Shown piece by piece: positions 1 through 15,156 of a stretch of DNA of 64,000 nt; the stretch's first letter is position 1; each line of letters opens with the position of its first letter. The DNA is taken from contig JAPEUD010000040.1 in NCBI GenBank assembly GCA_026026165.1, forward strand, positions 1-64,000. The letters are read 5' to 3'. The notes below the pieces were generated by a model. That model did not search any database. It saw nothing but the letters and a program-made list of their open reading frames with translations, and was not told the origin of the DNA. This DNA is from Sarea resinae. Its lineage: Eukaryota. The position numbers and the translations under genes were made by a program.

Positions 1-123
1 CCCTAACCCTAACCCTAACCCTAACCCTAACCCTAACCCTAACCCTAACCCTAACCCTAACCCTAACCCTAACCCTAACCCTAACCCTAACCCTAACCCT
101 AACCCTAACCCTAACCCTAACCC
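1..123. repeat. Telomeric repeat (CCCTAA)n, chromosome end
   Basis: 20 perfect CCCTAA units plus CCC starting at base 1; canonical TTAGGG telomere of filamentous ascomycetes. Confidence 0.99.
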
Positions 124-1955
124 TTGATGACAGAAGTGATGAAGTTGATGAGAAATAGCACTTCTCCTTATGTAGAAGAAAGTTGCTGATGATGTAGGTG
201 GTAAGTTTGAATTGCATGGCGGAACCAGGCACGCAAGATTCAGGCGGAAGGTACGTACCTTATTGAACAGTCAATAACATTCACCGCAAGGTACGTACCT
301 TATTGACCAGCCAATAACACTGACCGAGGTACGTACCTTACAGTGAATGTTTACCTTAATATCACACAGGTCTACTACTCAATTCAACCTTACCACCTAT
401 ATCATCAGCAACCTTCTCCTATAGCAGGAGGATTGCTCTCTCTTATCAACTTTGTCACTTCTGTCATTAAACTAACAAGACTTAATAAACTTTATCACTT
501 CTATCATTAGCATCATTAAGATTTCTCTCTTAGTGCTCTTTAAGTTTTTAGGTTAAGGTGAGTTTAAGAACTACTGCTTAGTAGTAACACATTTAGGTAA
601 CATTTGAGACTGCAAAGGCACGCAGCTAATTCTTCCTAAATACAGACAACTCTCTAGATTCTTTCTTTAATATCAGCTATAGATTCTCCTTCAGCACTCT
701 CTACACTACACTCTCACTCTCTTAACATAATCATAGTCACTTATACAGTAATTTATGCTTTCCTACCTCTACTAGTAACACTTAATAGTAACATTTTACT
801 AGACAATAGCTTGTACTAACTGTACTACCTGCAAGACTGTCCCTAGTACTAGTAGGAAAGGAAAAGGAAAAGGCAAGGGAATGTCTGCTGCTAAGGCTTA
901 TCGTGTTACTAGTGGCAAATCCCTACGCAAGAACTTAGCTAGTATAGCAGCACGCAAAGGTCGTCTTGCTACTAGATAACGCTTCACTACTAGCACATAT
1001 GCTTAACGCTAAAAGGCCTACAAAGATGCTATAAAATCATAGGTTTGTAAGGATACTGCATTTCGTGGTTGTAGTGAGGTTTATAGTGTGCCTAAACTAA
1101 TCCAACCCTGTCGCACTTGTCTAGGCAGTAAGTCTTAGTCTCTAAACTCTAAGGGTAACACATTATAGTAACATTTTAACACTACAGCATCTGCACTCTG
1201 TGAAATCAAGAGATTGCAAAAGTCTTTTGATTTAGTCATTCTAAAGCTCCCTTTCTAGCGCCTGGTCCGCGAGGTTACATCTTATCACTACTACCTCTCT
1301 AGAGAGCTCTGTTTCTAGTTATCAGCTATGCATGCCTTATAAGAAGCCACTGAGGCTTTTATAGTTAGGTTCTTTAAAAGTGAGTTTTTCTATCTTGTCT
1401 TCTATCCTATACTTATTATTTCTAGATGTGCTTTAGGCCTGCATTTATCAGAACTGTGTGACTATCAATCACAAAGACACTTAGTTTATTAAGGCCTTAA
1501 TAAAGGGCTTTAGTATCTAGATCTCTAGTAACATATAGGTCAAGTTTCTATAGCATTAGCTCTAAGGTTTTACTAGTCCTAGTAGTGCAATTAGGGATGC
1601 AATTAGAGATGCAGTCAGGGATGCAATTAGGGCTTTTCTAGTCTTCTAGTCTAGTTTTTCTCTGCCTTTTAGCATTTTCACTCTCTACTTTACTTAGTCT
1701 ACAATAAAGACTTAATAGACTTAGTAACACATATAGGTAACATTCCTAGAGTAATAGCGGCTTTTTAATGCTCTATAAAACATGCCCTGCAATCTATGCT
1801 ATTTTAGCCACTATTTTCATGTCATGTGACAGGTACCTAGGCCTACCTACTAGGTCCTATTAGGCAGGTTGATTAGGGCATAGGTACCTAATACCTATGC
1901 CTAGGCAGGTTCTTCTACCCCTACCCGCCTAGTAGGTACCTAAGTAGACAGCCTA
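124..1955 (-). mobile_element. Telomere-truncated inverted copy of the H3-carrying hAT transposon (left 1,832 bp only)
   Basis: Reverse complement of 5093-6924 (matched positions sum to 7048 at both ends). TIR ACCTAAGTAGACAGCCTA at 1938-1955. The differences I checked between copies are C/T or G/A transitions. Confidence 0.95.
806..1520 (+). pseudogene. Histone H3-like gene, RIP-inactivated (copy 1), 3 exons
   Basis: Exons 806-1127, 1188-1379 and 1426-~1520; introns gtaagt..ctacag (1128-1187) and gtgagt..ttctag (1380-1425). Literal translation includes ALCEIKRLQKS, KLPF*RLVRE, LCF*LSAMHAL*EATEAF and NCVTINHKDT, matching the H3 histone fold after reversing C>T/G>A changes. 3' end approximate. 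Confidence 0.9.
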
Positions 1956-4900
1956 AGTAGAAAGTAGCTCTAACTAAAGCCTAGCAACTTAGAAAGGTTA
2001 AGCAAGCTAGAGTAGTACTAACTATAGAAGATAATTTATTAAGTAGTATAGAAAGGCAACTACCTAAGGGTTAGAGAGTTAGAGGTCAAGCTATATAGTA
2101 TAAGATATAATCTTTTACTACTATTATATAGGCTTAATCTTACTCTCTAGAGACCTAACTATAACTGTATACTTTCTACTAGCTAGGCTAGCTAATTAGC
2201 AATATATACACACTAGGTAGTTAGTATACACCTCTTTAGAGTTTTACTAGCCTAGCTAGCTAAATAGCTAGCAAGTAAAGCAAGTGCAATATCTAAAGAG
2301 TCTTATCTTCTTAGACTATCTAGAAGTTTAATTATTAAATAGCTGTATTATTAAGGATTGTAACTAGTAATACAGTTAGAGTGCTTACTACTATAGCCTA
2401 CTTAGAGGTGCTACTAGAGGTTACCTAGGGCGCGCTTAATTAGTCTGTTAGTAGCGCTTCTATAGTAGGGCCTAACTCTAAGTAGGTAGAAAAAAAGTAG
2501 CTATACTACTATTAGTTACCTAGAGGTTGTATAATGCAAGTAGAGTTACTTAAAGAGAGAGAGAGAGAGAGCGCACTTGCTTAGTAGCTAGGTCGCTTGC
2601 TTAGTCAGTCGCTTAGTCGCGATACAGTTAGAGTATAAGTTAAAAGTAGCTCTAACTACTATTAAGCGACTCTAAAGAGGTTTAGCAAGCTAGAACAGTA
2701 TTAATAGTAAGAGATAATTAATTAAGTTATATAGAAAGGTAGCTTTCTAGAGGTTAGAGGTTAGGCTAGCAGTATTAGAAGGCGATTTCAATAGTTTTCT
2801 AGCTTGCTTAATCCTACTACCTTAATCCTGCTATGCTTTTTCGTTCTGCTAGCTAGGCTAGCTAATTATAAGGTAAGTAGTTAGAGTATATACTTAGTAT
2901 ATCTCTTTAATCCTAGCAGGATTACAGCCTGCAATACAGTTAGGAATATTTATTTAAGAAGTTATTTAAATACATAGCATCCTAGATTTAATAGTCTTAG
3001 ACTATAGATTGCTGTTTACCTCTTAATTCTAGACTTCTTTCTACTTTTACCTATAAGTTTAGTAAGACCTTAGTATAGCGTTCTACTTGTAAATAGATAG
3101 ACAAACTAAACAATAAAATTAAATATTAGAAGCATACCTTTAAGCGTTTATAAATAGAGCATAGGATAATTAGGCCTAATTACTCTTACTTACTAAATTT
3201 ACATATAATAATTCTAAATATTTAGCGACTAAAATAACTCTCTTTATAGCAACAAATAAGAGACACCTGCAAATAGAATTCTAAATGCAAAACCACCTAT
3301 ATAAATCAGCAATAGAGACAGCCTATACTGCTAAAATAAATAACATATATAAACACTTAAAACAAAGAATAAAAAAGGTTAACAAATAGTACACTAAATA
3401 ATACAACAAAGGTTACAAATTATACAAATACAAACTAGGTAAATATATTTAGCTAGATATATAAAACATATAGATATAACAACTAGCTATAAAATTACAA
3501 GCAAGGCAAATAGGACTATATATTATTACTAAGAAAATTAGCAAACAGGCTTATAAACTACAGTTACTTAAATAGTTCTAAATCTATAATGTCTTTAATA
3601 TATAACTGCTTAAACTATATATAAGTAGACTAAACTAGAATTATACAGATAAATAGCAGTAGAATAAAGAAGATACTGCTAACTCTAACAAACTATTTAA
3701 CATTAAAGCTATACTAAATAGCTGCATTTAAAAAAACATCTTAGAATACTAAGTAAAATAGCTTAATTACTCTAAATAAAAAAGCATATAAAAAGAGGCT
3801 AGAAGTGTAAACTACCTTAAAGAACTACTCTATAAATTTCACTATAAACACTCTATAAAAGCATTAAAATCTATAAACCTAAGACAAATAAAAAAACCTA
3901 GTTAAGCCTAACTACCTATATAAAAGAAGAAAAACAGGAACAAACTATATAAAGAAGTAACTACTAGCGTGTATACTAATAGAGAATTAACTTTACATTA
4001 TAATTAATCTAATAAACCCTAGCCTAGTGCTTAACAAATATAAGGTTAGTGTGTATATCTTACACAAACTTAATAAGATTATAAACATTGTCTTACACTA
4101 TATTAATAGCGCTCTAAACAATCTCTAACTTAACTTAGGCAGCTAACTAATCCTAAACAATCTGCTTATAAAGGCTCTTAATCTTATCTCTTAAAAGCCT
4201 AATTTTAGCAAACAGCTATAAGTTGTTATAACTTATATAGTAATTTGCACTAGTAATAGAATTAGTAACAAGCACAACTAAACTATATAGAGAAGAGGTG
4301 TAAGATAAAGAGTTAGATAATATAAGAGATAAAAAAGACAGATCCTATAAAAAGAGCAGAGGTAAACTAGTAAGACTTAACTATAGTAGTAAAGCTGTAA
4401 AAACCCTAGGAGAATTAGGTAGAGGCAACTAAGGCGAATCACTAGCAGGCAAATACAGTAGTAATAATAATAAAGAAAACAATCTAACTATAATAGCTAA
4501 TAGCCTATTAGTAAAGCGCTAACTAATAAGTAGATTGTTTAGATCTAAGTTAATATAATTTAGACTAAAAGAGTCTAGCAAAGGCACTAGCACACTACAC
4601 CTACTACTTATAACAATTAATAAAGCTATATAAAAAAAGAAAGTAAGAAAAACATATAGAGAAAATAAGAGATACTTAAATAGGCTAACTTAGAAACAAA
4701 ACAAGCAAATAAACAGATCCTAGCTATAATAACAGAAAAAAGAAAGAGAACTTATAATCTACACTACCTAAGAACAACTTAGCCTATAGCTATACACTAG
4801 GCGAATTTAAACAAAGAGAGCAATAAATATAACAAGCTAAATAGTAAAGCAATAGACTAGAAAGTAAAGAGTCTAAATCTATATTGCTATAGCAACTAGT

Positions 4901-5092
4901 ATAAACATAACTATAAATAAGCCTAAGCAACAATAAAATATCTAATAAACTAGTCACTTACTATTTAGACTTCTAACTAGTTTAGATAATTAGCTAGTTT
5001 AGTGTAATAAGGAGCGCAACTATAGGACTAGGTGTAGAAAGAGCAGTAAGAATAGCAAGTAGTATAATAATAGTAGAGGTAGTAGGTAAAGC
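1956..5092 (+). mobile_element. RIP-degraded Ty3/Gypsy (chromovirus) LTR retrotransposon relic; integrase, GPY/F and chromodomain at ~3050-3870
   Basis: After de-RIP, ~3075-3150 reads like the integrase core motif AFHPQTDGQTERQNQ.LE.YLR; ~3510-3570 reads IGPY.I...IGKQAYKLQLP; ~3695-3800 reads like a chromodomain (F.IEAILDSR..LEY.VKW). Extreme TpA enrichment. LTRs not resolved, and flanking parts may belong to other repeats. Confidence 0.75.
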
Positions 5093-5110
5093 TAGGCTGT
5101 CTACTTAGGT
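5085..5110. repeat. Left 8-bp TSD (5085-5092) and left 18-bp TIR (5093-5110)
   Basis: GGTAAAGC followed by TAGGCTGTCTACTTAGGT. Confidence 0.95.
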
Positions 5111-5527
5111 ACCTACTAGGCAGGTAGGGGTAGAAGAACCTGCCTAGGCATAGGTATTAGGTACCTATGCCCTAATCAACCTGCCTGACAGGACCTAGTA
5201 GGTAGGCCTAGGTACCTGTCACGTGACATGAAAATAGTGGCTAAAATAGCATAGATTGCAGGGCATGTTTCATAGAGCATTAAAAAGCCGCTATTACTCT
5301 AGGAATGTTACCTATATGTGTTACTAAGTCTATTAAGTCTTTATTGTAGACTAAGTAAAGTAGAGAGTGAAAATGCTAAAAGGCAGAGAAAAACTAGACT
5401 AGAAGACTAGAAAAGCCCTAATTGCATCCCTGACTGCATCTCTAATTGCATCCCTAATTGCACTACTAGGACTAGTAAAACCTTAGAGCTAATGCTATAG
5501 AAACTTGACCTATATGTTACTAGAGAT

Positions 5528-6242
5528 CTAGATACTAAAGCCCTTTATTAAGGCCTTAATAAACTAAGTGTCTTTGTGATTGATAGTCACACAGTTCTGA
5601 TAAATGCAGGCCTAAAGCACATCTAGAAATAATAAGTATAGGATAGAAGATAAGATAGAAAAACTCACTTTTAAAGAACCTAACTATAAAAGCCTTAGTG
5701 GCTTCTTGCAAGGCATGCATAGCTAATGACTAGAAACAGAGCTCTCTAAGGAGGTAGCAGTGATAAGATGTAACCTCGCGGACCAGGCGCTAGAAAGGGA
5801 GCTTTAGAATGACTAAATCAAAAGACTTTTGCAATCTCTTGATTTCACAGAGTGCAGATGCTGTGGTGTTAAAATGTTACTATAATGTGTTACCCTTAGA
5901 GTTTAGAGACTAAGACTTACTGCCTAGACAAGTGCAACAGGGTTGGATTAGTTTAGGCACACTATAAACCTTACTACAACCACGAAATGCAGTATCCTCA
6001 CGAACCTATGATTTCATAGCATCTTTATAGGCCTTTTAGCGTTAAGCATATGTGCTAGTAGTGAAGCGTTGTCTAGTAGCAAGACGACCTTTGCGTGCTG
6101 CTATGCTAGCTAAGTTCTTGCGTGGGGATTTGCCACTAGTAACACAATAAGCCTTAGCAGCAGACATTCCCTTGCCTTTTCCTTTTCCTTTCCTACTAGT
6201 ACTAGAGACAGTCTTGCAGGCGGTACAGTTAGTACAAGCTAT
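5528..6242 (-). pseudogene. Histone H3-like gene, RIP-inactivated (copy 2, inside the full element)
   Basis: Mirror of 806-1520. Retains ancestral codons lost in copy 1 (ACC GCC = T-A of TARK; TTG CAA = L-Q of ALQEA), which supports the de-RIP reading. Confidence 0.9.
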
Positions 6243-6523
6243 TGTCTAGTAAAATGTTACTATTAAGTGTTACTAGTAGAGGTAGGAAAGCATAAATTAC
6301 TGTATAAGTGACTATAATTATGTTAAGAGAGTGAGAGTGTAGTGTAGAGAGTGCTGAAGGAGAATCTGTAGCTGATATTAAAGAAAGAATCTAGAGAGTT
6401 GTCTGTATTTAGGAAGAATTAGCTGCGTGCCTTTGCAGTCTCAAATGTTACCTAAATGTGTTACTACTAAGCAGTAGTTCTTAAACTCACCTTAACCTAA
6501 AAACTCAAAGAGCACTAAGAGAG

Positions 6524-6938
6524 AAATCTTGATGATGCTAATAACAGAAGTGATAAAGTTCATTAAGTCTTGTCAGTTTAATAACAGAAGTGACAAAGTT
6601 AATAAGAGAGAGCAATCCTCCTGCTATAGGAGAAGGTTGCTAATAATGTAGGTGGTAAGGTTGAATTAAGTAGTAGACCTATGTGATATTAAGGTAAACA
6701 TTCACTGTAAGGTATATACCTTAGTCAGTGTTATTAGCTGGTCAATAAGGTACGTACCTTGCAGTGAATGTTATTGACTGTTTAATAAGGTACGTACCTT
6801 CCGCCTGAATCTTGCGTGCCTAGTTCTGCTATGCAATTCAAACTTACTACCTATATTATCAGCAACTTTCTTCTACATAAGGAGAAGTGCTATTTCTTAT
6901 CAACTTTATCACTTCTGTTATTAATATCATTAAGATTT
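6524..6938. promoter_or_regulatory. Imperfect palindrome enclosing ~40-bp tandem units with AAGGTACGTACCTT palindromes; probable bidirectional promoter between the H3-like gene and cargo gene 2
   Basis: 91-bp inverted arms at 6578-6668 and 6834-6924 (124-214 and 380-470 in copy 1). Palindromes at 248-261, 288-301 and 327-338 in copy 1. Promoter role inferred from position only. Confidence 0.55.
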
Positions 6939-6996
6939 CATTAATTTCATTAATCCTATCAACTTCCTAACTGTTTAGGCAGTAGAAAGTGATAAG

Positions 6997-8807
6997 ATAG
7001 CTGGCTAATTACTCTCTAAATCACTTACATCCTCTATAAGCTCCTCTTAGGACAAGGTAGCTATAGAGAATACTGTTATTATAAAGAAGAGGTGAGTTTT
7101 AAACCTCTAAGTGAGATAACAATGAGGTGAAACTGACTTCTTCCTAGAAACTATAGTCTAAGGGCTTAGACTTAAGGGTAACACATTTAGGTAACATTAG
7201 TACTACAAAAGGCTTATATTAGTGCAGAAAACGCTAAAAGCTTAAGAAAGCTAAATCAACTACAACTGATCTAAATCTAGGGCTAGAAAAACACAAAGAC
7301 AATAGCTAACTGCGTATAGATCTTAACAATAGTATTAACAACTCTATATATAGAAGCAACAATTAGAAAGGAAGTGATTATGAGCAGACAGCTAGTGAGG
7401 CTAGGTAACACATTTAGGTAACACTTTTTCTCTCTAAATATCTGCTGACAGTGCTACTATAGTGATAAGAGCAGTGATAAGGTAGAAATAGTGTCTGTAG
7501 CAAAGAAGACAAAGGCAAAGTTCTTACACAAGGTTAGAAACAAATATAAGAAGCAGAAGCAGTAACACATTTCAGTAACAATTCTAAACACAGAGCTAAT
7601 AAAGCAATAGGACTATATCTTAGGCACAGAAGAAAAAGAGGACTGACCTTAATGATAAGGTAGAGAGCTCAGACTCACCTGCTCTAAGAAAGAGACAGCC
7701 TAAGAGAGCATTTGACACAGAGATAGCTAGCCTAGTAGAACGTGTAAAAGCCTGCCTACAAAGACGTTATGCTAGTGAGTTAAGGCCTAGGATAGTTCCC
7801 TACAGCAAACAACAACAGATTGCTAGAGCGCAGCTTAAAGAGGCAAAGTCTAAAGCATTAGAGTTAGAGCTAGATAGCAAACTCAGCGATACTAAGTTTA
7901 AGAAGACACTGAAAAAAGCAGATAGAGCAGATAGGAAAGCAAAATCCACTCTAAGAGGCAAACTCTGTCGCGAGAATAGTTATGCTAGTATAACAGCAGC
8001 ATAACAGCAAGACTTTAAGGAGACTGTTATAGACCCTAAAATAGACAAACTAATAGAACGCCGCTTTTTCCTCTACTAGTCTGCTAAGTGGGTTACTATA
8101 CAGCAGCAAAAGGCTATTAAGGCAGAGAAAGCAAAGGCTAAGGACAACAAGCAGACAGTTAAGGATGTTGTTAATATCTTGCTACTTAAAGACAATAGAG
8201 ATAGCTAACCTAATAGTGGTGCTAATCCTAAGGTAACACTTTTAGGTAACATTTCTTTGCAGCATCTGTCTAATTAGTTTAGCAAGGACAAAATTCAGAT
8301 GAGCCTAACTTGTTATTTAGAGCATAGGGCAAACGCATTAGAAGTCGCTTGCTAAAAGTGGTTCGCCGCTATAAGAGAGACATCTACCGCTATAGCTATA
8401 ATGATCTAGTAGAAGCTAGTGATCTCTATCTAACAGAAGCGATGTTAGAGTTTGTAGAGCAGGTTAAGGACCGCGCAACACTCTCTAACAGTGACACAGA
8501 GGCTAGGACTGATTTTGCTAGGTTTAGCAATTTAGAAGCAGAAGTGTTTCTATTATCTAATAAGGATATTGACCTAATCTCAAGTGATAAGGAAGACTTT
8601 GTGCTGCTGACTATAGGAGAGAAAACTCAGCTAGAGGACATTTCTAAAGGAGAGGACTCTGCTATTGCTAGGTCTGCTATAGAGAAGGCTCTGCTAACAA
8701 CAGCTAAGAATGTTCCTATCAATGCAGAGAGGAGTAAGGATGACTCTGCTAACAATGCTAAAGAGAAGGACTTAAGTTCTAGTGCTGCTAAGGATAGCAA
8801 TAAGTAG
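6997..8807 (+). pseudogene. Cargo gene 2 of the hAT element: multi-intron, charged/acidic protein of unknown family, RIP-inactivated
   Basis: Purine-rich coding-like sequence; intron-like segments starting at 7093 (gtgagt), 7405, 7562 and 8233 (gtaaca) with branch sites and AG ends; residual open 152-aa ORF at 8349-8807; start inferred from ATA (ex-ATG) at 6997. Confidence 0.6.
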
Positions 8808-9191
8808 AGGGCAGTTATAGCCGAGTGGCTTTTCCTTATTAGTCTGTGTCTGCCTAAGGGTAGGTTTTCACTTTTTCTCTAGAATTTAGTTTACTAAAAA
8901 GGTAACACTTACTAGTAACATTGCGTACTTTAATCACGTTAGGAATGCACATTCTCTTAATTAAATTTTAGCTGTATAAACTCTCTGCTATAACTCTAGT
9001 AGACAGCTGTATTGTATTACTCTCTATGTAGTCTCCCTGCTGTGTTTCTTTAGCGATACTAAACCTAGCAACCTTTGATGTCGACATTTAAGCAAATACT
9101 TCTCTAGTTAAGGGCACTTCTAACGTCTTCACTCTGCTGTACGTTCTAAGGCCTTCTGCACTTTCTTATCACTCTAAATTTCTTCTTTACA

Positions 9192-12000
9192 ATGTCTAAT
9201 TCGTTTCAAACATCAGACTATAAGGAACTTAAGGATAGTACACAAAGATCTACAGCTATTGAGTCTAAACCTACAACTATTACTTTAACTTTGATTCACT
9301 ATGTTCTAGAGGTGTTACAAAGGGATCCTACACAGCGAATAGTTATCTAGCAGCAATTATATCATGCTACTTTTATCTTCTAGTAGGAGCAGACCGCCTA
9401 TGCAGATATAGGTCAATATAGAAGCCCTTAATAGGATTCTAGGACGCAGAAAAGCACAACCTAGTCTTTCTTCTACTAAGTTGCTGATGTTGCAACTAGC
9501 TGCCTAGAGATAATGTGTTAGCGATGCAGACGTCAGCAAGAGCATCCTAGTCTTAAGAGGACTAGCACTTCTTTAATGAAACAGCACTATAGCTCTCTAG
9601 AGTGTGCTTAGTCTCTTGCAGCAGGCACAATGCGCACACTTAAGGCTCTTTAGACTATAGTAAGATATCGCTATATGTAATAGATCTCTTAAACTAATAC
9701 CTCTATCCTTGGTGCTAGCAACGTACTTTAGCAATAAAGGCTCTCTAAACCTCAGAGCTATTCTCTTAGTTAAGCTAGCAACGCCTTCTCCTTAAGATAA
9801 TTCTATCAGCAAATCTTCTATAGCGGATTATAGAAAACCACTGGTTCTAACAATGCTTCCTTCTTTGCTAGCTAGGCCTTCGAATTCCAGGGCGACAATA
9901 GGTTTATAATAGCATTTATAATCGATATACAGAGATCTTACTAAGGATCCTACAGAGACTAGGCCTAGAAACTAAAATTTCTATCGCACTAGATGCATAG
10001 CAGAGTCTAAATAAGATCTCCTTTCTTTCTATAATAGGGTATTTCATTGACAAGGACTAGAATTACTAGGAAGTCCTCCTAGGGTTTGAAAAGATAACTA
10101 GAGAGCACTCTAGTCGCAATATAGCTACGTTACTACTTGATCGACTTTAGTGTTTCAATATTTAGGTTTGTCTTTAACCTTTATAGTAACGCTTTTAGGT
10201 AACATTACATTGTAGGATCGCATATTAGCTGTGACAACAGATAACGCAGGCAACAACAACACAATGCGTTAAGAGCTAATAAGCCTACTTGCTAATCACT
10301 ATCAGATTGTATAGGATCATAAGGTTGCTTGTGTGCCTTGCCTTGCGTATGTCATTCAGCTTGCAGTCGTTGCTTTTAATAAGTGCCTAAGAATTACTGC
10401 TTTGAACAAGTCTATACAAGATACCTAGTCAGATGCAGACTAAGAGCTTCTTTAGCAGCTTCCTTCTGAAGACTCCTTTAGCAGCACGCTGCAAAAGGTA
10501 AGTTCTAACAGCCCTTGTCTATTACTACCTCTAAAGTTTCTAGATTCGTGCACTTGCTGTCTATATCGCTGCTTTATCACAGCGAACTGCGCGCTTTTGT
10601 GATCTGCAGCTAACGCTAGTCAATATGATCTAAGATGTTAAAACTCAATAGAACTCAACATATAATATGCTGAAGCAGGCCTAGCAGCTGCGAGATGCCC
10701 TTTAGATGTTTCTTGTTAGTGAAACTAGTCCTGCAATACGTAGAGCTTGTGTCTCTCCTACTAGTTAGGACTATATTCGCTATCTGATTGTCTTACTAAA
10801 GCTATTTAATGATTAGACAAGAGCTATGTCTTAGACTAAAGGCGTAACTATCTACAAGACCTAGTTTGTATACTCTTAGATTTTTAAGCACTTAGAGAAG
10901 CATCTAACTAAGATGCGGCCTAAGCAGACACCCTAGAAACAGGAGCTTACTTCTGCTATAGAAGCAGCAAAGACAAAGCTCTCTAAGTACTACTAAGATA
11001 CTAAAGGCGTACGTAGGAGAATGTTCAATCTAGTATGCATCCTTAATCCCTTAACAAGGCTTAATCTATATAAAGTATGTTACCTAAATCTGTTACTCTT
11101 ACCTTGTCCCCTAGGAATATTTTGCTAATTGCTAAGAAGTCTAATGACTAGGGCCATGAATATTTGCGAAAGTACCGGCGCGAATTTAAGGACTATTATT
11201 AATTGCATTATGCAAGAACTAAAGTTGCCTCCTTAGATGTTGCTGCACTCTCTGTATTAGCATTAGATGTCAATTCACTTGCATAGGCTAAGACGCTTTA
11301 GAAACAATATCGCTCTGTTACAGATCTAGTCTGTTAGTATCTATCTTCGCTAGCTACAGACTACAAAGATCTCTTGCAGGTAACACTTTCAGGTAACATT
11401 TCTGTGTGCAGATGCTGACCTTCTACTAGTTCTAGCGATCACACTACTAGCCCTCGCTTAAACAAATAGCAAAAGACATTCTTGCTATACCTAGAGCTGC
11501 TGTTAGTGTTAAAAGGACTTTCAATAAGGCACAAGACCTTATTACCTTTTGTCGAAGCCGCCTTTCAGCAGAAACCGTTTAGAACACTATAGTTGTGAAG
11601 CACTTTGATCGCGATAAACTCTGCTTACATATAGGTGAAGGTGAATCTAAGAGTATTTCTAAGGACAGTGATTATTAACACACGCTATCAGCTGAATTTA
11701 ATGATTATTTACTTGTTATTAGTGATAATGATAAGCTAATCTTAGTCAATAGTGAGCCTGCGCTACAGGATGATACAGACCTGTATAGGTTTTCTAGTGA
11801 TAAGCACTCTTTACTGCTTCTACCTCTACCTACAGTGCAGCGAGATACACCTGCTCTATAGCAGCAGTCTTTGCTTTAACGCTCTAGGCACGACAATTCT
11901 CAATCTATATTGTCTTAAAGAAAGCGCCCGCGTTCAACTGTGGATGATTTATTTGTCAGGTTAAAGGCACAGAGGTACTCTTCTAGAACTAGTCTATTTC
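9192..12000 (+). pseudogene. hAT transposase (BED-type finger, DDE domain, C-terminal dimerization domain), RIP-inactivated
   Basis: De-RIP motifs: CxxC..H finger at ~9515-9605; IALDAWQS at ~9985; GYFIDKDWNYREVLLGF at ~10040; VTTDNAGNN at 10231; CLAHVIQL at ~10340; DVKTRWNSTY at 10634; AIPG..VSVERTF and RSRLSAETV at ~11485-11580. Ends approximate. Confidence 0.93.
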
Positions 12001-12439
12001 CTTCTTAATTGCGTAAATAACTACACCTGTAGTAGTTCTCTTTGTACGTGCTACAGCATATATTTATCTCTGTTAGAGTAGAGTTAGTTTTAGTAAAACA
12101 TACTAGGTTATAAAGGTTTAGAGGATGATTTAGCGGATTTAATATAGTGCAGAGTATGTAGGACTCTCTAAAGTAAACATATAGAGTATATTGTCATACT
12201 ATTATTCTTATTCTACAACTCTTATAGTCTTATCGCATCTAACCCCTAAATGTTACCTCTATGTGTTACCTTTCAATGATCTTATCTTATCAATCTATCC
12301 CTTATCTTATCAATCAACCTGCATATACCTAGTAGGTAGGCTGTAGGCCCTACAGCCAATTGAGCCTGCCTAAACCCAACCCGATTATGTAATCAGGCGG
12401 GCTAACCCGCCTAAAGCTTAATTTAGGCCGAGTACCTAA

Positions 12440-12465
12440 ACCTAAGTAGACAGCCTAGGTAAAGC
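12440..12465. repeat. Right 18-bp TIR (12440-12457) and right 8-bp TSD (12458-12465)
   Basis: ACCTAAGTAGACAGCCTA followed by GGTAAAGC. Confidence 0.95.
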
Positions 12466-14930
12466 AATAGGTAGTGTAATAATAGCAAGTGTAATAGGCT
12501 AAAAGCAATTACAAACACTTAGCAAACAATACTATAAAGCATATAATAAGAATATATACTAAGACCTTTCTAAGCCTATATTTATTAATAGACTTGCTTT
12601 AAAAGATATATAATAGGTAGTAATTAGTCTTCTATATCTAAAGGCATATAACTATATAATAATAACAAGTGTTACACCTTAGGTTTACTACCTTATAGTC
12701 ACTAGCATTTTAAATAGCCTAAGCCTATATCTTATACTTATTTAACTAATTAGTAATATAAACAAGCATAACTAATATATAAGCTAAATAAGTATAATAA
12801 CTTAAATAATAAGTTATAAAAGAGCTACTAAAGGCCTAACCTTTATAGCCTTTCCTAGATTAAGTTAGAGTAGTAGTAGGTAGTAAAGGCGCAGCAATAA
12901 CTATCTTACTCTAAGAAGCTAGTTTATACTAATAATAAACATTAGCTACTATAGTAACAGATAATATTAGTATAACAATAAGTAAAAACAATATCTAATA
13001 GGTAAAGACTATAAACACTAAATAAACTACTCTAGTTATTACTATAAACAATATAAATAACCTATAATAAGATAACTAAACAAGCTAATTATAATAGCAC
13101 TATAAGAATTATTGCATTAAATATAAAAGAGATAGTAAATAATACACTTACTAGCTAGCTAAATATAGTGCAATATATAAAGGATAAAAACAAAGAGATA
13201 ATATAATAATATAAAGCAACTAAAACAACCTTTAAATTATAGCTTAAGGTTTGTTAATAAGGTAAGAAGACTGTTTATAAGGCTCTACTAATTTATCTAC
13301 TAAGCTAACTAGATATTTACCTCTACTAACACCTAATAAAAACATAAATTATATAATTACAACTAGTTACAAAGTATAAAGAATTAGTATAAACACTAAG
13401 ACAGCTAATATAAGGTTATAAGGTATACTATAGCTAAACCTTATAAATAAGTATAAAACAATTACTGCAATAACTAATAGGTGTATAATATAAAGAAATC
13501 TATATAAGTAAAATATAAAGATATAATTAGTAAATAAGCACAATATAAATAGCTAAAATCTATAGATATATAAGCCTAATTACAAACACAGAACTATAAA
13601 AATAGAAAACACTAATAGAAGGTTATAACCTACTTAACACTGTCTCCTACGTTATAAAACAAAGGATACTAAAAAGCCTAAATAAGGGAAATAATAAGGC
13701 GACTACAAACAGCGATCAGTAAAATTCGCTCTAAACTAGAATAAAGAAGTTAAACAAAGGAAAAACTAAGAGCGATCCTAGGTAGTGTAACGCCTAGACC
13801 TACTAATTCTAAAACAAAGAAATAATAATAAAGATAAACATATAAAAAAAACAACTAAAAAGGGCGATAAACAGCAACAGGCTAAATTACTAACAGCTTA
13901 AACAAAGTATACTAAGCAATAAAAATTAGAGATAACTATAAGAGGCACACTAACTAAAGCCTACTAGTGTTAAGAATAAAGAAACACAATAAAGAAATAA
14001 TAAACAAAGAAATAACTAGTATAACTATAAACAGCAATTAGTAAAATTCGCTCTAACTTAGAACAAAGAAGTTAAATAAAAAGAAGATATAAAGACAACT
14101 ACAAGCAGTGAAAACGCTTAGAACCTCTAAAACTACAAACTAAAAGAACAATTATTACTATAAGAACACTAGAACTACCTAACCTATAATAAATATATAA
14201 GTATAAAGCACTTGCCTCTAGCTACAGTCTATAAATAGATACAAAGCTAAATAATAGAAAAACAACAACAATAAACATACAAACCTATAAATAGTACTAG
14301 CGTTATAGACAACACTATATAAAAAAGAGAGAACTATATTAAGAAGTAGGTAACTCTTTACTAAGTATACTAAGTAGTGTTTAAGGCCTACAAACCTTAG
14401 AGGTTTATTAGTTTAAGAGTTTAGTATAACTAGTCTCTTTTTATTTAACTATTTAGGAGTTTAGCACAAACAGCACTCTTTTATCTAGCTGTTTAGCCTT
14501 TAGAGCACTATATATATTCTATCTCTATAAAGTAGCTAGCAAAGTAGTTGCTAATACTATCCTATTATAAATCATTGTTTGTACTCTATTTATAAGTTTA
14601 TAGATTTGTACAAACCTTACGCATATTCTTTGCATGTATAAACTAAGTTAGCCTAGCTACTTACACCTTTAAAGCACTATATATACTCTCTTTCTATAGA
14701 GTAGTTAGTAGAGTAGTTACTAATTCTATATTATTATAAGTTATTTTTTGCCTTTTGTTAAGAAACTAAGTTAGTCTAGCTACTTATTTAAAGGTAAAAG
14801 AAAGCTAGTCTCTTTATTACTACCTATAAAGATTAATTAATATAACTTAGCATAGAAAGAGAAAGAGAGGATAATAGAATAAGGCTCTAACTAAGTCTCT
14901 AACCAAGTCTCTAACTAAGTACACACTCTT
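12466..14930. mobile_element. Heavily RIP-degraded repeat DNA, continuation of the sequence interrupted by the hAT insertion
   Basis: Very AT/TpA-rich; contiguous with 5092 through the TSD; internal diverged direct repeats (~13700-13830 vs ~14020-14140; ~14480-14570 vs ~14645-14740); abrupt switch to normal GC at ~14930. Confidence 0.65.
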
Positions 14931-15156
14931 TATCTACTCGCCGTTCGACCCATTCGATCTCAGTCGATTGTCTTTGATGACCACTGACTACCGCACGTCA
15001 GCTCGACCAGATCATCATCATCACGCCTAATTACGCAACGGCTTTCGCGGCACAGCCTTTGTTTGTACGTCAGAGCTAATGTACTCTGGCTCATCTCGAT
15101 TGGTTAATCTCGAAAAAAAAAACACTCCGATTTCTCCGAAGTCCCTCATCGCAGCT

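Follow-up and report, generated by a model that had tools for sequence, protein, structure and literature searches.

A donor-like 22-nucleotide doublet repeated in the predicted introns and spacers of a hAT transposon of Sarea resinae

The transposon and its genes

The stretch of Sarea resinae DNA analyzed here (contig JAPEUD010000040.1 of assembly GCA_026026165.1, positions 1 to 64,000; hereafter the window) contains a complete hAT transposon of 7,365 bp, at 5093-12457 on the plus strand, whose non-coding parts repeatedly carry one and the same doublet of the motif GTAACA. The element is bounded by terminal inverted repeats, TAGGCTGTCTACTTAGGT, at 5093-5110 and 12440-12457 (18 of 18 positions identical), and by an 8-bp target-site duplication, GGTAAAGC, at 5085-5092 and 12458-12465. 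The 8-bp duplication, the short terminal repeats and a C-terminal dimerisation domain are those of the hAT class. Between the ends lie three genes, for a histone H3-like protein, the product of a central open reading frame (ORF) and a transposase. The same arrangement of three genes has already been described for an element of Pyrenophora tritici-repentis (PMC3538342). The copy in the window is dead and has undergone repeat-induced point mutation (RIP): stop codons are found throughout all three genes, and TpA/ApT is 1.68 in the element versus 0.65 in host DNA, dinucleotide indices typical of RIP. A second, truncated copy in inverted orientation occupies 124-1955 on the minus strand. It consists of the left 1.8 kb of the element, with the H3-like gene and half of an intergenic palindrome, and is capped by telomere repeats. 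Over 1,832 nt it is 97% identical to 5093-6924; the 60 differences are all transitions, 46 of them in CpA context, with CpG also affected (11 of 60).

The H3-like gene (5527-6167, minus strand) was modelled in three exons separated by introns at 5861-5920 (60 nt) and 5623-5668 (46 nt); in the truncated copy, copy 1, the exons lie at 881-1127, 1188-1379 and 1426-1521 on the plus strand. Its product matches the Pfam family Histone (E 4e-11), and its best matches among solved structures are to histone H3, over residues 47-104. The central ORF, called cargo gene 2 in a first-pass annotation made from the letters of this DNA, lies at 7380-8808 on the plus strand and has 428 codons with 5 internal stops, in four exons (7380-7417, 7463-7561, 7611-8232 and 8283-8808) and three introns (7418-7462, 7562-7610 and 8233-8282). 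The transposase gene (9192-12010, plus strand) is heavily RIP-mutated. Its predicted introns are 10166-10215, 10498-10543, 11075-11136 and 11380-11429, and the exons of its core are 9902-10165, 10216-10497, 10544-11074, 11137-11379 and 11430-12010. The dimerisation domain Dimer_Tnp_hAT (PF05699) was found at 11412-11660 when the region was read through with X (E 3.9e-06, 27 bits against a cut-off of 21.4).

Occurrence and consensus of the doublet

A search of both strands of the 64,000 bases for the pattern GTAACNNNNNNNNGTAAC (GTAAC-N8-GTAAC) gave 17 matches, every one of them at 584-12269, against a mean of 0.08 and a maximum of 1 in 100 dinucleotide shuffles of the whole window. The plus-strand doublets at 584, 775, 1155 and 1724 mirror those at 6447, 6256, 5876 and 5307. 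Since these four extra sites sit in the inverted duplicate 124-1955, the number of independent doublets is 13. When only the element was shuffled, in 2,000 local rounds that preserve dinucleotides, the count averaged 0.019 and never exceeded 1; 13 doublets are observed. All 13 positions listed in the first-pass annotation were recovered; its starts on the minus strand are one lower because they were counted from the 6-mer TGTTAC. The fixed spacing that it had described was likewise found: among same-strand GTAAC pairs no more than 40 nt apart in the element, the spacing is 13 in 13 of 13 cases and no other spacing occurs. Other RIP-mutated DNA of the window (5.6 kb) holds a single pair, with a spacing of 30, and host DNA of the window (49 kb) a single pair, with a spacing of 29; in neither is there a pair at 13. 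The earlier claim that the doublet is private to the two element copies therefore holds in this 64-kb window, within which family privacy was judged, both against host DNA, with none in 49 kb, and against other RIP-mutated DNA. When the window was scanned with a weight matrix, the 17 doublets scored 31-40 bits and nothing scored between 12 and 31 bits. A search for RIP-degraded forms of the doublet found none; with no intermediate scores and no degraded forms, the doublet family is therefore all-or-none.

Alignment of the 13 sites shows 12 invariant and 4 nearly invariant columns between unconserved flanks; mean column identity over the whole alignment of 114 columns is 48%, and the borders of the core are sharp. 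The spacer between the half-sites had been described as variable. It is in fact semi-conserved, as C-W-T-T-T-A-G, and the real unit is a core of about 22 nt, RGTAACAC-(A/T)TTTAG-GTAACATT, a two-copy tandem of a 13-nt unit. Tandem Repeats Finder reports 2.1-2.4 copies of this unit at 7402-7428 and 11373-11402. An R, mostly within AG, precedes each half-site, which thus reads YAG/GTAAC and resembles a splice donor. Neighbouring doublets are 157-1,284 nt apart and form no dense tandem array. One lies about 200 nt from each end of the element, and these two, the only doublets within 250 bp of an end, share one orientation and are not mirrored; the other 11 of the 13 are more than 700 nt from either end. 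The doublet is a statistically extreme, family-private cis-module in a transposon of an already known kind.

Searches beyond the window gave little. The pattern GTAACACNTTTAGGTAACAT was matched once at each of 5 loci in metagenome contigs; these matches were treated as chance, because BLAST against window positions 1-15000 shows similarity over only the 20-22 nt of the motif. Rfam has no family at the doublets, its sole match being a sub-threshold group II hit at 6967-7114 (E 0.56).

Location relative to genes and introns

Seven of the doublets lie in, or at the edge of, predicted coding introns. Intron 7562-7610 of the central ORF, in frame and 49 nt long, opens with the 18 nt of the plus-strand doublet 7562-7579 and has CTAAT 11 nt from its end. 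The doublets at 8233-8250 and 11380-11397, both on the plus strand, form the first 18 nt of in-frame introns of 50 nt, 8233-8282 in the central ORF (CTAAT 9 nt from the end) and 11380-11429 in the transposase gene (CTGAC 11 nt from the end). Three introns of 49-50 nt thus start exactly with a doublet, restore the reading frame and have a CTRAY box 9-11 nt from the end; removal of the last of them brings ...DYKDLLQ next to FW.., where the hAT dimerisation domain begins. The plus-strand doublet at 7405-7422 straddles the junction of exon 1 and intron 1 of the central ORF (7417/7418). Only its second half-site, at 7418, yields an in-frame intron (7418-7462, 45 nt), so the first half-site would be coding. 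All four of these introns run from GT to AG, contain a branch box 8-20 nt before their 3' end and, when removed, leave the frame restored. The first-pass annotation had proposed that the doublets at 7405, 8233 and 11380 supply the 5' GT of an intron. This is borne out at 8233 and 11380 but fails for the first half-site at 7405, where only the second fits, and the doublet at 7562, which it had not named among these, also supplies such a GT.

Two further doublets are found in the 3' half of an intron and in the sense orientation: 5876-5893 (minus strand) in intron 1 of the H3-like gene (5861-5920, donor GTAAGT) and 10186-10203 (plus strand) in the 50-nt intron 10166-10215 of the transposase gene (donor GTTTGT). 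No CTRAY box was found in these two introns, and the A of the second half-site is 16 and 13 nt, respectively, from the intron end. The seventh doublet, 11079-11096 on the minus strand, is antisense and begins at position +5 of transposase intron 11075-11136; its reverse complement gives bases +3 to +6 of the donor GTATGT. The remaining six precede the ATG of each gene by 100-300 nt or follow stop codons. On the minus strand, 6256-6273 is 106 nt and 6447-6464 about 300 nt upstream of the H3-like ATG, and 5307-5324 follows the H3-like stop at about 200 nt, with 214 nt between it and the left end of the element. On the plus strand, 7178-7195 is 202 nt upstream of the central-ORF ATG, and 8902-8919 lies about 100 nt past the central-ORF stop and 290 nt before the transposase ATG. 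The last, 12252-12269 on the minus strand, is antisense; the transposase stop precedes it by about 240 nt and the right end is 188 nt away.

Although 60% of the element is exon, no doublet is wholly exonic and 12 of 13 midpoints fall outside exons, in agreement with the earlier observation that the doublets avoid coding exons; the exception is the midpoint of 7405, in exon 1 of the central ORF. The probability that 13 of 13 midpoints would miss exons by chance is 6e-06. Coding-region introns, 458 nt in all, contain six of the midpoints (P = 6.8e-05 versus the whole element; P = 0.009 versus the non-coding DNA of the element alone). Counting the straddler at 7417/7418, seven of nine predicted coding introns bear a doublet and two do not. 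Eleven of the 13 doublets are in the sense orientation with respect to the nearest gene (one-sided P = 0.011). What is new here is this link between doublet and intron, with six doublets within introns and one straddling a border; three, perhaps four, introns of about 50 nt begin with a doublet. A reading of the doublet introns as stwintrons, with the 13-nt GT..AG piece as inner intron, was rejected, as the piece is far too short.

RIP context and survival of the motif

When the element (5093-12457) is compared with host DNA (14931-64000), RIP is seen to be nearly confined to CpA after a pyrimidine: about 98% of CCAN and about 80% of TCAN have been converted, whereas for ACAN and GCAN conversion stays at or near the host background. 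The differences between the two copies agree, with mutation at 0 of 13 ACAC and 2 of 20 ACAT sites. Every CpA in the doublet core is ACAC or ACAT, and the doublet thus survived RIP because its CpAs stand in the ACA context that is spared here. Special protection of the doublet from RIP was accordingly rejected, sequence context being sufficient. Also rejected was the idea that GTAAC is itself the RIP product of GTGAC or GCAAC, since 26 of 26 half-sites read GTAAC. TCAG is about 83% converted by RIP here and 2 of 13 spacers still read TCAG, which suggests that the spacer TTTAG was formerly TTCAG. The ancestral 13-nt unit was therefore probably CAG/GTAACA or similar, which would fit the core of the donor consensus, AG/GTAA.

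Possible origin and action of the doublet

Point mutation cannot have produced the same 22 letters 13 times over, and a copying process is therefore needed. Longer shared stretches surround some of the copies: 53 nt at 74% identity between the copy in the leader of the H3-like gene (6256) and that in its intron 1, 44 nt at 77% between the mirror partners 6447 and 7178 in the two arms of the divergent promoter, and 36 nt at 78% between 6447 and 11380. Introns with a doublet (45-62 nt) are barely longer than the two without (46 nt), so that the doublet makes up these introns and is not added to them. The shared flanks, the intron lengths and the strand bias suggest copying of pieces about the size of an intron, in the sense orientation.

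The reading that we favour, tentatively, is that the doublet is a donor-derived, intron-borne module that acts at the RNA level; we do so because of the donor-like half-site, the positions at donor or branch distance, the enrichment in introns and the strand bias. The doublet would be a duplicated weak splice donor, two YAG/GTAACA in a 13-nt register, heading a private family of introns of about 50 nt and of leader and trailer segments in the three genes. It would have originated at the 5' end of an intron and spread through the element with intron-sized pieces in sense orientation. Its present action would be mainly on the pre-mRNA, where the core would be read as RNA: the first half-site may serve as the donor where no other donor exists, and the second may provide the branch region where a CTRAY box is absent. 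The 22-nt core would then be one shared, suboptimal splicing signal for all three genes, through which we propose that expression of the element could be limited or co-regulated. The first-pass annotation had instead taken the doublet for a DNA-level self mark, and gave too little weight to donor-likeness, sense bias and intron enrichment, which favour an RNA-level or intron origin at least as strongly. Binding of a protein to the same sites as DNA is compatible with action on RNA, and the two are not exclusive.

Several points weigh against action on RNA. The splice models were built from reading-frame logic alone and checked by script, so that the introns themselves are predictions. Two of 13 doublets (11079 and 12252) are antisense, and six lie outside any predicted coding intron, where splicing is conjecture. 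Splice signals span 5-8 nt, which leaves the invariant half-sites, register and spacer in 13 contexts unexplained; invariance even in introns that have a donor of their own argues for a reader spanning about 22 nt. Fungal donors usually keep G at +5, which GTAACA lacks. No single rule covers the donor positions, as 7405 fits with its second half-site and the other three sites with the first. The argument from the branch region is weakened by the motif-free intron 5623-5668, which also has no CTRAY box, and any 22-nt site in a 50-nt intron must overlap some splice signal. Finally, spread by intron duplication has no demonstrated mechanism in a DNA transposon.

Alternative explanations

A reader spanning the whole core is what the main alternative supplies. 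A protein of the element that binds DNA sequence-specifically would recognise the doublets, and would control transcription or work against the silencing of the element's own copies, as VANC does on VANDAL; we consider this possible, but on the whole unlikely. Introns and spacers would be the only places where 22 bp can persist, and the donor look would follow because only donor- or branch-compatible words fit introns of 50 nt. The doublet is family-private and sharply bounded, 22 bp with two equal half-sites RGTAACAY of 8 bp at a fixed 13-bp register, and it is retained in 13 contexts and both orientations, as expected of selection by a protein dimer or a tandem reader; the spread over introns, spacers and subterminal zones of about 200 bp matches that described for VANC21 (PMC5735166). 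Every gene has a doublet 100-300 nt upstream of its ATG. The core TTAGGTAAC also resembles TTAGGTACC in the inner terminal repeat, and TAGGTACC is found three times at the left end, but TAGGTA is frequent in all RIP-mutated DNA here (3-5 per kb) and the likeness to the terminal repeat is weak. As to the protein, a pattern C-x2-C ... H-x5-C was seen by eye near 9480-9600 in the transposase N-terminus, the only candidate with a recognisable DNA-binding feature. In Pfam, however, neither this RIP-damaged region nor the central ORF matches a BED finger or any other domain that binds DNA, and the latter is an orphan with a low-confidence model. The doublets are single and do not form the dense tandem arrays of VANDAL21. 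AGGTAA would be rare in a binding word of arbitrary sequence, yet both half-sites contain it, and the sense bias (P = 0.011) and exact donor positions would need an extra assumption. Nor did any test link the doublets to the H3-like protein. A further step along this line would be that a protein of the element (the BED-type N-terminus or the central protein) uses the doublets as an address to steer chromatin with the element's own H3, whose tail appears to have arginine in place of lysine 9, onto its copies, shielding them from H3K9 silencing. That step we regard as improbable.

The doublets might also be neutral relics of old internal duplications, without function; such larger duplications do lie behind the palindrome arms at 6447 and 7178 and behind the leader and intron-1 pair of the H3-like gene. 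Relics should decay evenly. Instead, identity drops from the core to background at sharp borders and there are no half-decayed copies; RIP context explains survival of RIP, not survival of ordinary mutation while the flanks diverged. We hold this reading to be more improbable still. Another alternative is a genome-wide, introner-like family of host introns that also colonised the genes of the element. Several introns of three unrelated genes do share a head, fungal introner-like elements are multi-copy introns that decay to ordinary ones (PMC3609843, PMC4457414), and a family in 1-2% of host introns could escape a 49-kb sample of host DNA. To this we give less credence again: doublets number 0 in 49 kb of host DNA versus 13 in 7.4 kb; 22 nt are shared rather than whole introns (36-53 nt in some pairs); introns with the doublet are not longer than those without; copies are also antisense and in spacers; and there is no stable fold. 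Fold z-scores are -0.24 to +1.57 for the seven doublet-bearing introns, and +0.44 and +1.37 for the two motif-free ones. Least probable of all, in our view, is that the doublets are ordinary hAT subterminal repeats, bound by the transposase for excision or synapsis, some of which lie further inside. Two do lie near the ends (214 nt away on the left, 188 nt on the right); a hAT element needs about 100-250 bp per end, and BED fingers bind short subterminal repeats (PMC10368747). But 11 of 13 are more than 700 nt from either end, the two near the ends have the same orientation and are not mirrored, the BED sites of Hermes are 4-bp words at the tips and not 22-bp doublets (PMC10368747), and the ends of the Sarea element carry repeats of their own, TAGGTACC three times as well as CCTGCC and AGGCAGG.

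A conserved private word in the non-coding parts of three genes is a first concrete handle on possible self-regulation or self-recognition by this element. If the favoured action on RNA is correct, a DNA transposon would be running all of its genes through one shared weak splicing signal, and introns would be multiplying inside a mobile element. If the doublet is instead read as DNA, it would be the first fungal analogue of plant VANC self-recognition, and, should it also address the element's own H3, a fungal, histone-based counterpart of VANC. Under either reading the core is a testable 22-nt probe.

Comparison with known systems

Elements of the hAT class with an H3-like gene are known from other fungi. 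RIP-mutated hAT elements with H3-like sequences have been described in six Mycosphaerellaceae (PMC6710886), and those of P. fijiensis, like the Sarea element, are RIP-mutated and lie in AT-rich blocks (PMC6710886). The three-gene layout and the H3-like gene between terminal repeats are shared with the published elements. The Mycosphaerellaceae consensus sequences differ from the Sarea element at their termini, and no sequence relationship to them was found. In the six consensus sequences (45 kb) GTAACAC and GGTAACA were each matched 0 times, and the reverse complement of each once. The available portions of the two descriptions (PMC3538342, PMC6710886) mention no repeated motif of this kind. 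Sarea resinae, to our knowledge, is not a Dothideomycete.

The closest functional parallel is VANDAL21, a Mutator-like element of Arabidopsis, for which the first-pass annotation had the facts right: VANC21 occupies a family-specific motif in intronic, intergenic and terminal non-coding DNA (PMC5735166). VANDAL21 likewise has accessory genes beside the transposase and a short, family-private motif, in one orientation, in its non-coding DNA (PMC5735166). Enrichment in non-coding DNA is thus common to both. The motifs of VANC21, however, are 9-bp words in dense tandem arrays formed by repeat expansion (PMC5735166), where the Sarea element has 13 dispersed 22-nt doublets; neither such arrays nor a protein of the VANC family was found here. 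The half-site is donor-like in Sarea, unlike in VANDAL21. The host defence also differs, being RIP in this fungus and not RNA-directed methylation as for VANDAL21.

Other transposons regulate themselves through repeated short cis-words. Pseudo-5'-splice sites control splicing of the third intron of the P element, and TnpA of maize En/Spm binds 12-bp subterminal motifs. These words are local, in one exon or at the ends, and not spread over all genes of the element as here. In Ac, subterminal AAACGG hexamers are bound by the BED finger of the transposase. The repeats of the hAT element Hermes, too, can be read by the element's own protein, and in Sarea one doublet lies about 200 bp from each end. 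The Hermes sites are AAG(T/C) at the tips, within the approximately 220 bp needed for mobility (PMC10368747), as opposed to 11 of 13 doublets deep inside the Sarea element. Fungal introner-like elements share with the Sarea introns that introns of different genes have sequence in common, suggesting gain by copying. They are, however, hundreds of near-identical and longer introns with stable folds, in host genes (PMC3609843, PMC4457414); the Sarea introns share their first 22 nt, are 45-62 nt long, show no fold signal and are confined to the transposon in the window.

Other features of the element and its surroundings

The tail of the H3-like protein (5922-6167, minus strand; 881-1126, plus strand) aligns weakly to H3 residues 10-32 (E 0.13-0.4) and keeps K14, R17, K18 and the ARK of K27. 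By extrapolation, at the residue just ahead of the aligned block, the register of K9 is taken by an arginine (CGT in copy 1, TGT in copy 2); RIP is unable to convert a lysine codon to CGT. For work on silencing, an H3 in which position 9 cannot carry methylation would be of interest. Between the divergent H3-like gene and central ORF lies an imperfect palindrome of about 400 bp (6523-6939, also 124-525) with 40-nt repeats, at a 40-nt period over 6708-6801, and 14-nt palindromic boxes, AAGGTACGTACCTT, in which CpG is kept. It does not belong to the doublet family, and the spacer looks like a symmetric bidirectional promoter.

For the central ORF one close relative was found, P0001 (85% identity), which is a hypothetical protein of a metagenome-assembled genome that carries the label Sarea resinae; an exhaustive profile-free search with the central ORF added one fragment at 80% and one weak, repeat-like match. 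No Pfam family and no distant relatives were found for the central ORF or P0001, no fold match for the Atlas model of the central ORF (mean predicted local distance difference test score, pLDDT, 0.50), and no relatives of P0001 among genome contigs and viral contigs. Homologues of the RIP-damaged transposase exon and of the H3-like exon were not found either, by a search that needs exact short words and is therefore weak evidence. In the transposase region 9192-10164, which is full of RIP stops, no Pfam family, BED finger included, was detected. The N-terminal part of the transposase, with its ATG at 9192, and the catalytic core are in different frames, the change falling near 9600-9900. Of the other copies matched, most (5 contigs) are without one base at 9691; this copy may have a frameshifting insertion there, or a further intron. 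The word GACTAT opens exon 3 of the central ORF (7611), right after a doublet intron, and is also found near the start of the transposase gene (9226). A short derivative of the P. tritici-repentis element is reported to have arisen by recombination at a 'gactat' in both ORFs (PMC3538342), and the likeness may be coincidence.

At the left end of the element TAGGTACC (core AGGTACCT) is found three times in the first 125 nt (5106-5217), and TAGGTAC once in the right terminal repeat (12432-12438). A box of about 33 nt, AATCAACCTGC...CCTAGTAGGTAGGC, lies close to each end, with both copies pointing the same way and not mirrored. These words and the box are candidates for the true subterminal transposase sites; CCTGCC and AGGCAGG repeats are also found at the ends. 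The element is flanked (1956-5092 and 12458-14930) by other, more heavily RIP-mutated repeat DNA, with a G+C content of 26-29% and (CpA+TpG)/(ApC+GpT) of about 0.47-0.49, which has internal repeats of its own and no doublet.

In one DNA sequencing run, 2,063 contig pieces match the element at 80-100% identity (572, 567, 689 and 235 by identity class). They differ at 603 variable places, of which 213 are C>T and 189 G>A, which points to many RIP-diverged copies of the family. In two other runs no pieces matched the element. Among the 40 of these 603 places that are listed, 0 fall inside doublets versus about 1.3 expected, a number that is uninformative on conservation. At the left edge of the window, a telomere repeat, (CCCTAA)n, occupies 1-123 (period 6, 20.7 copies, 100% matches) and marks a chromosome end. 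It abuts base 124, whose counterpart is 6924, where the intergenic palindrome has its outer edge; this end of the chromosome looks to have been healed at a break inside the second, inverted copy of the transposon.

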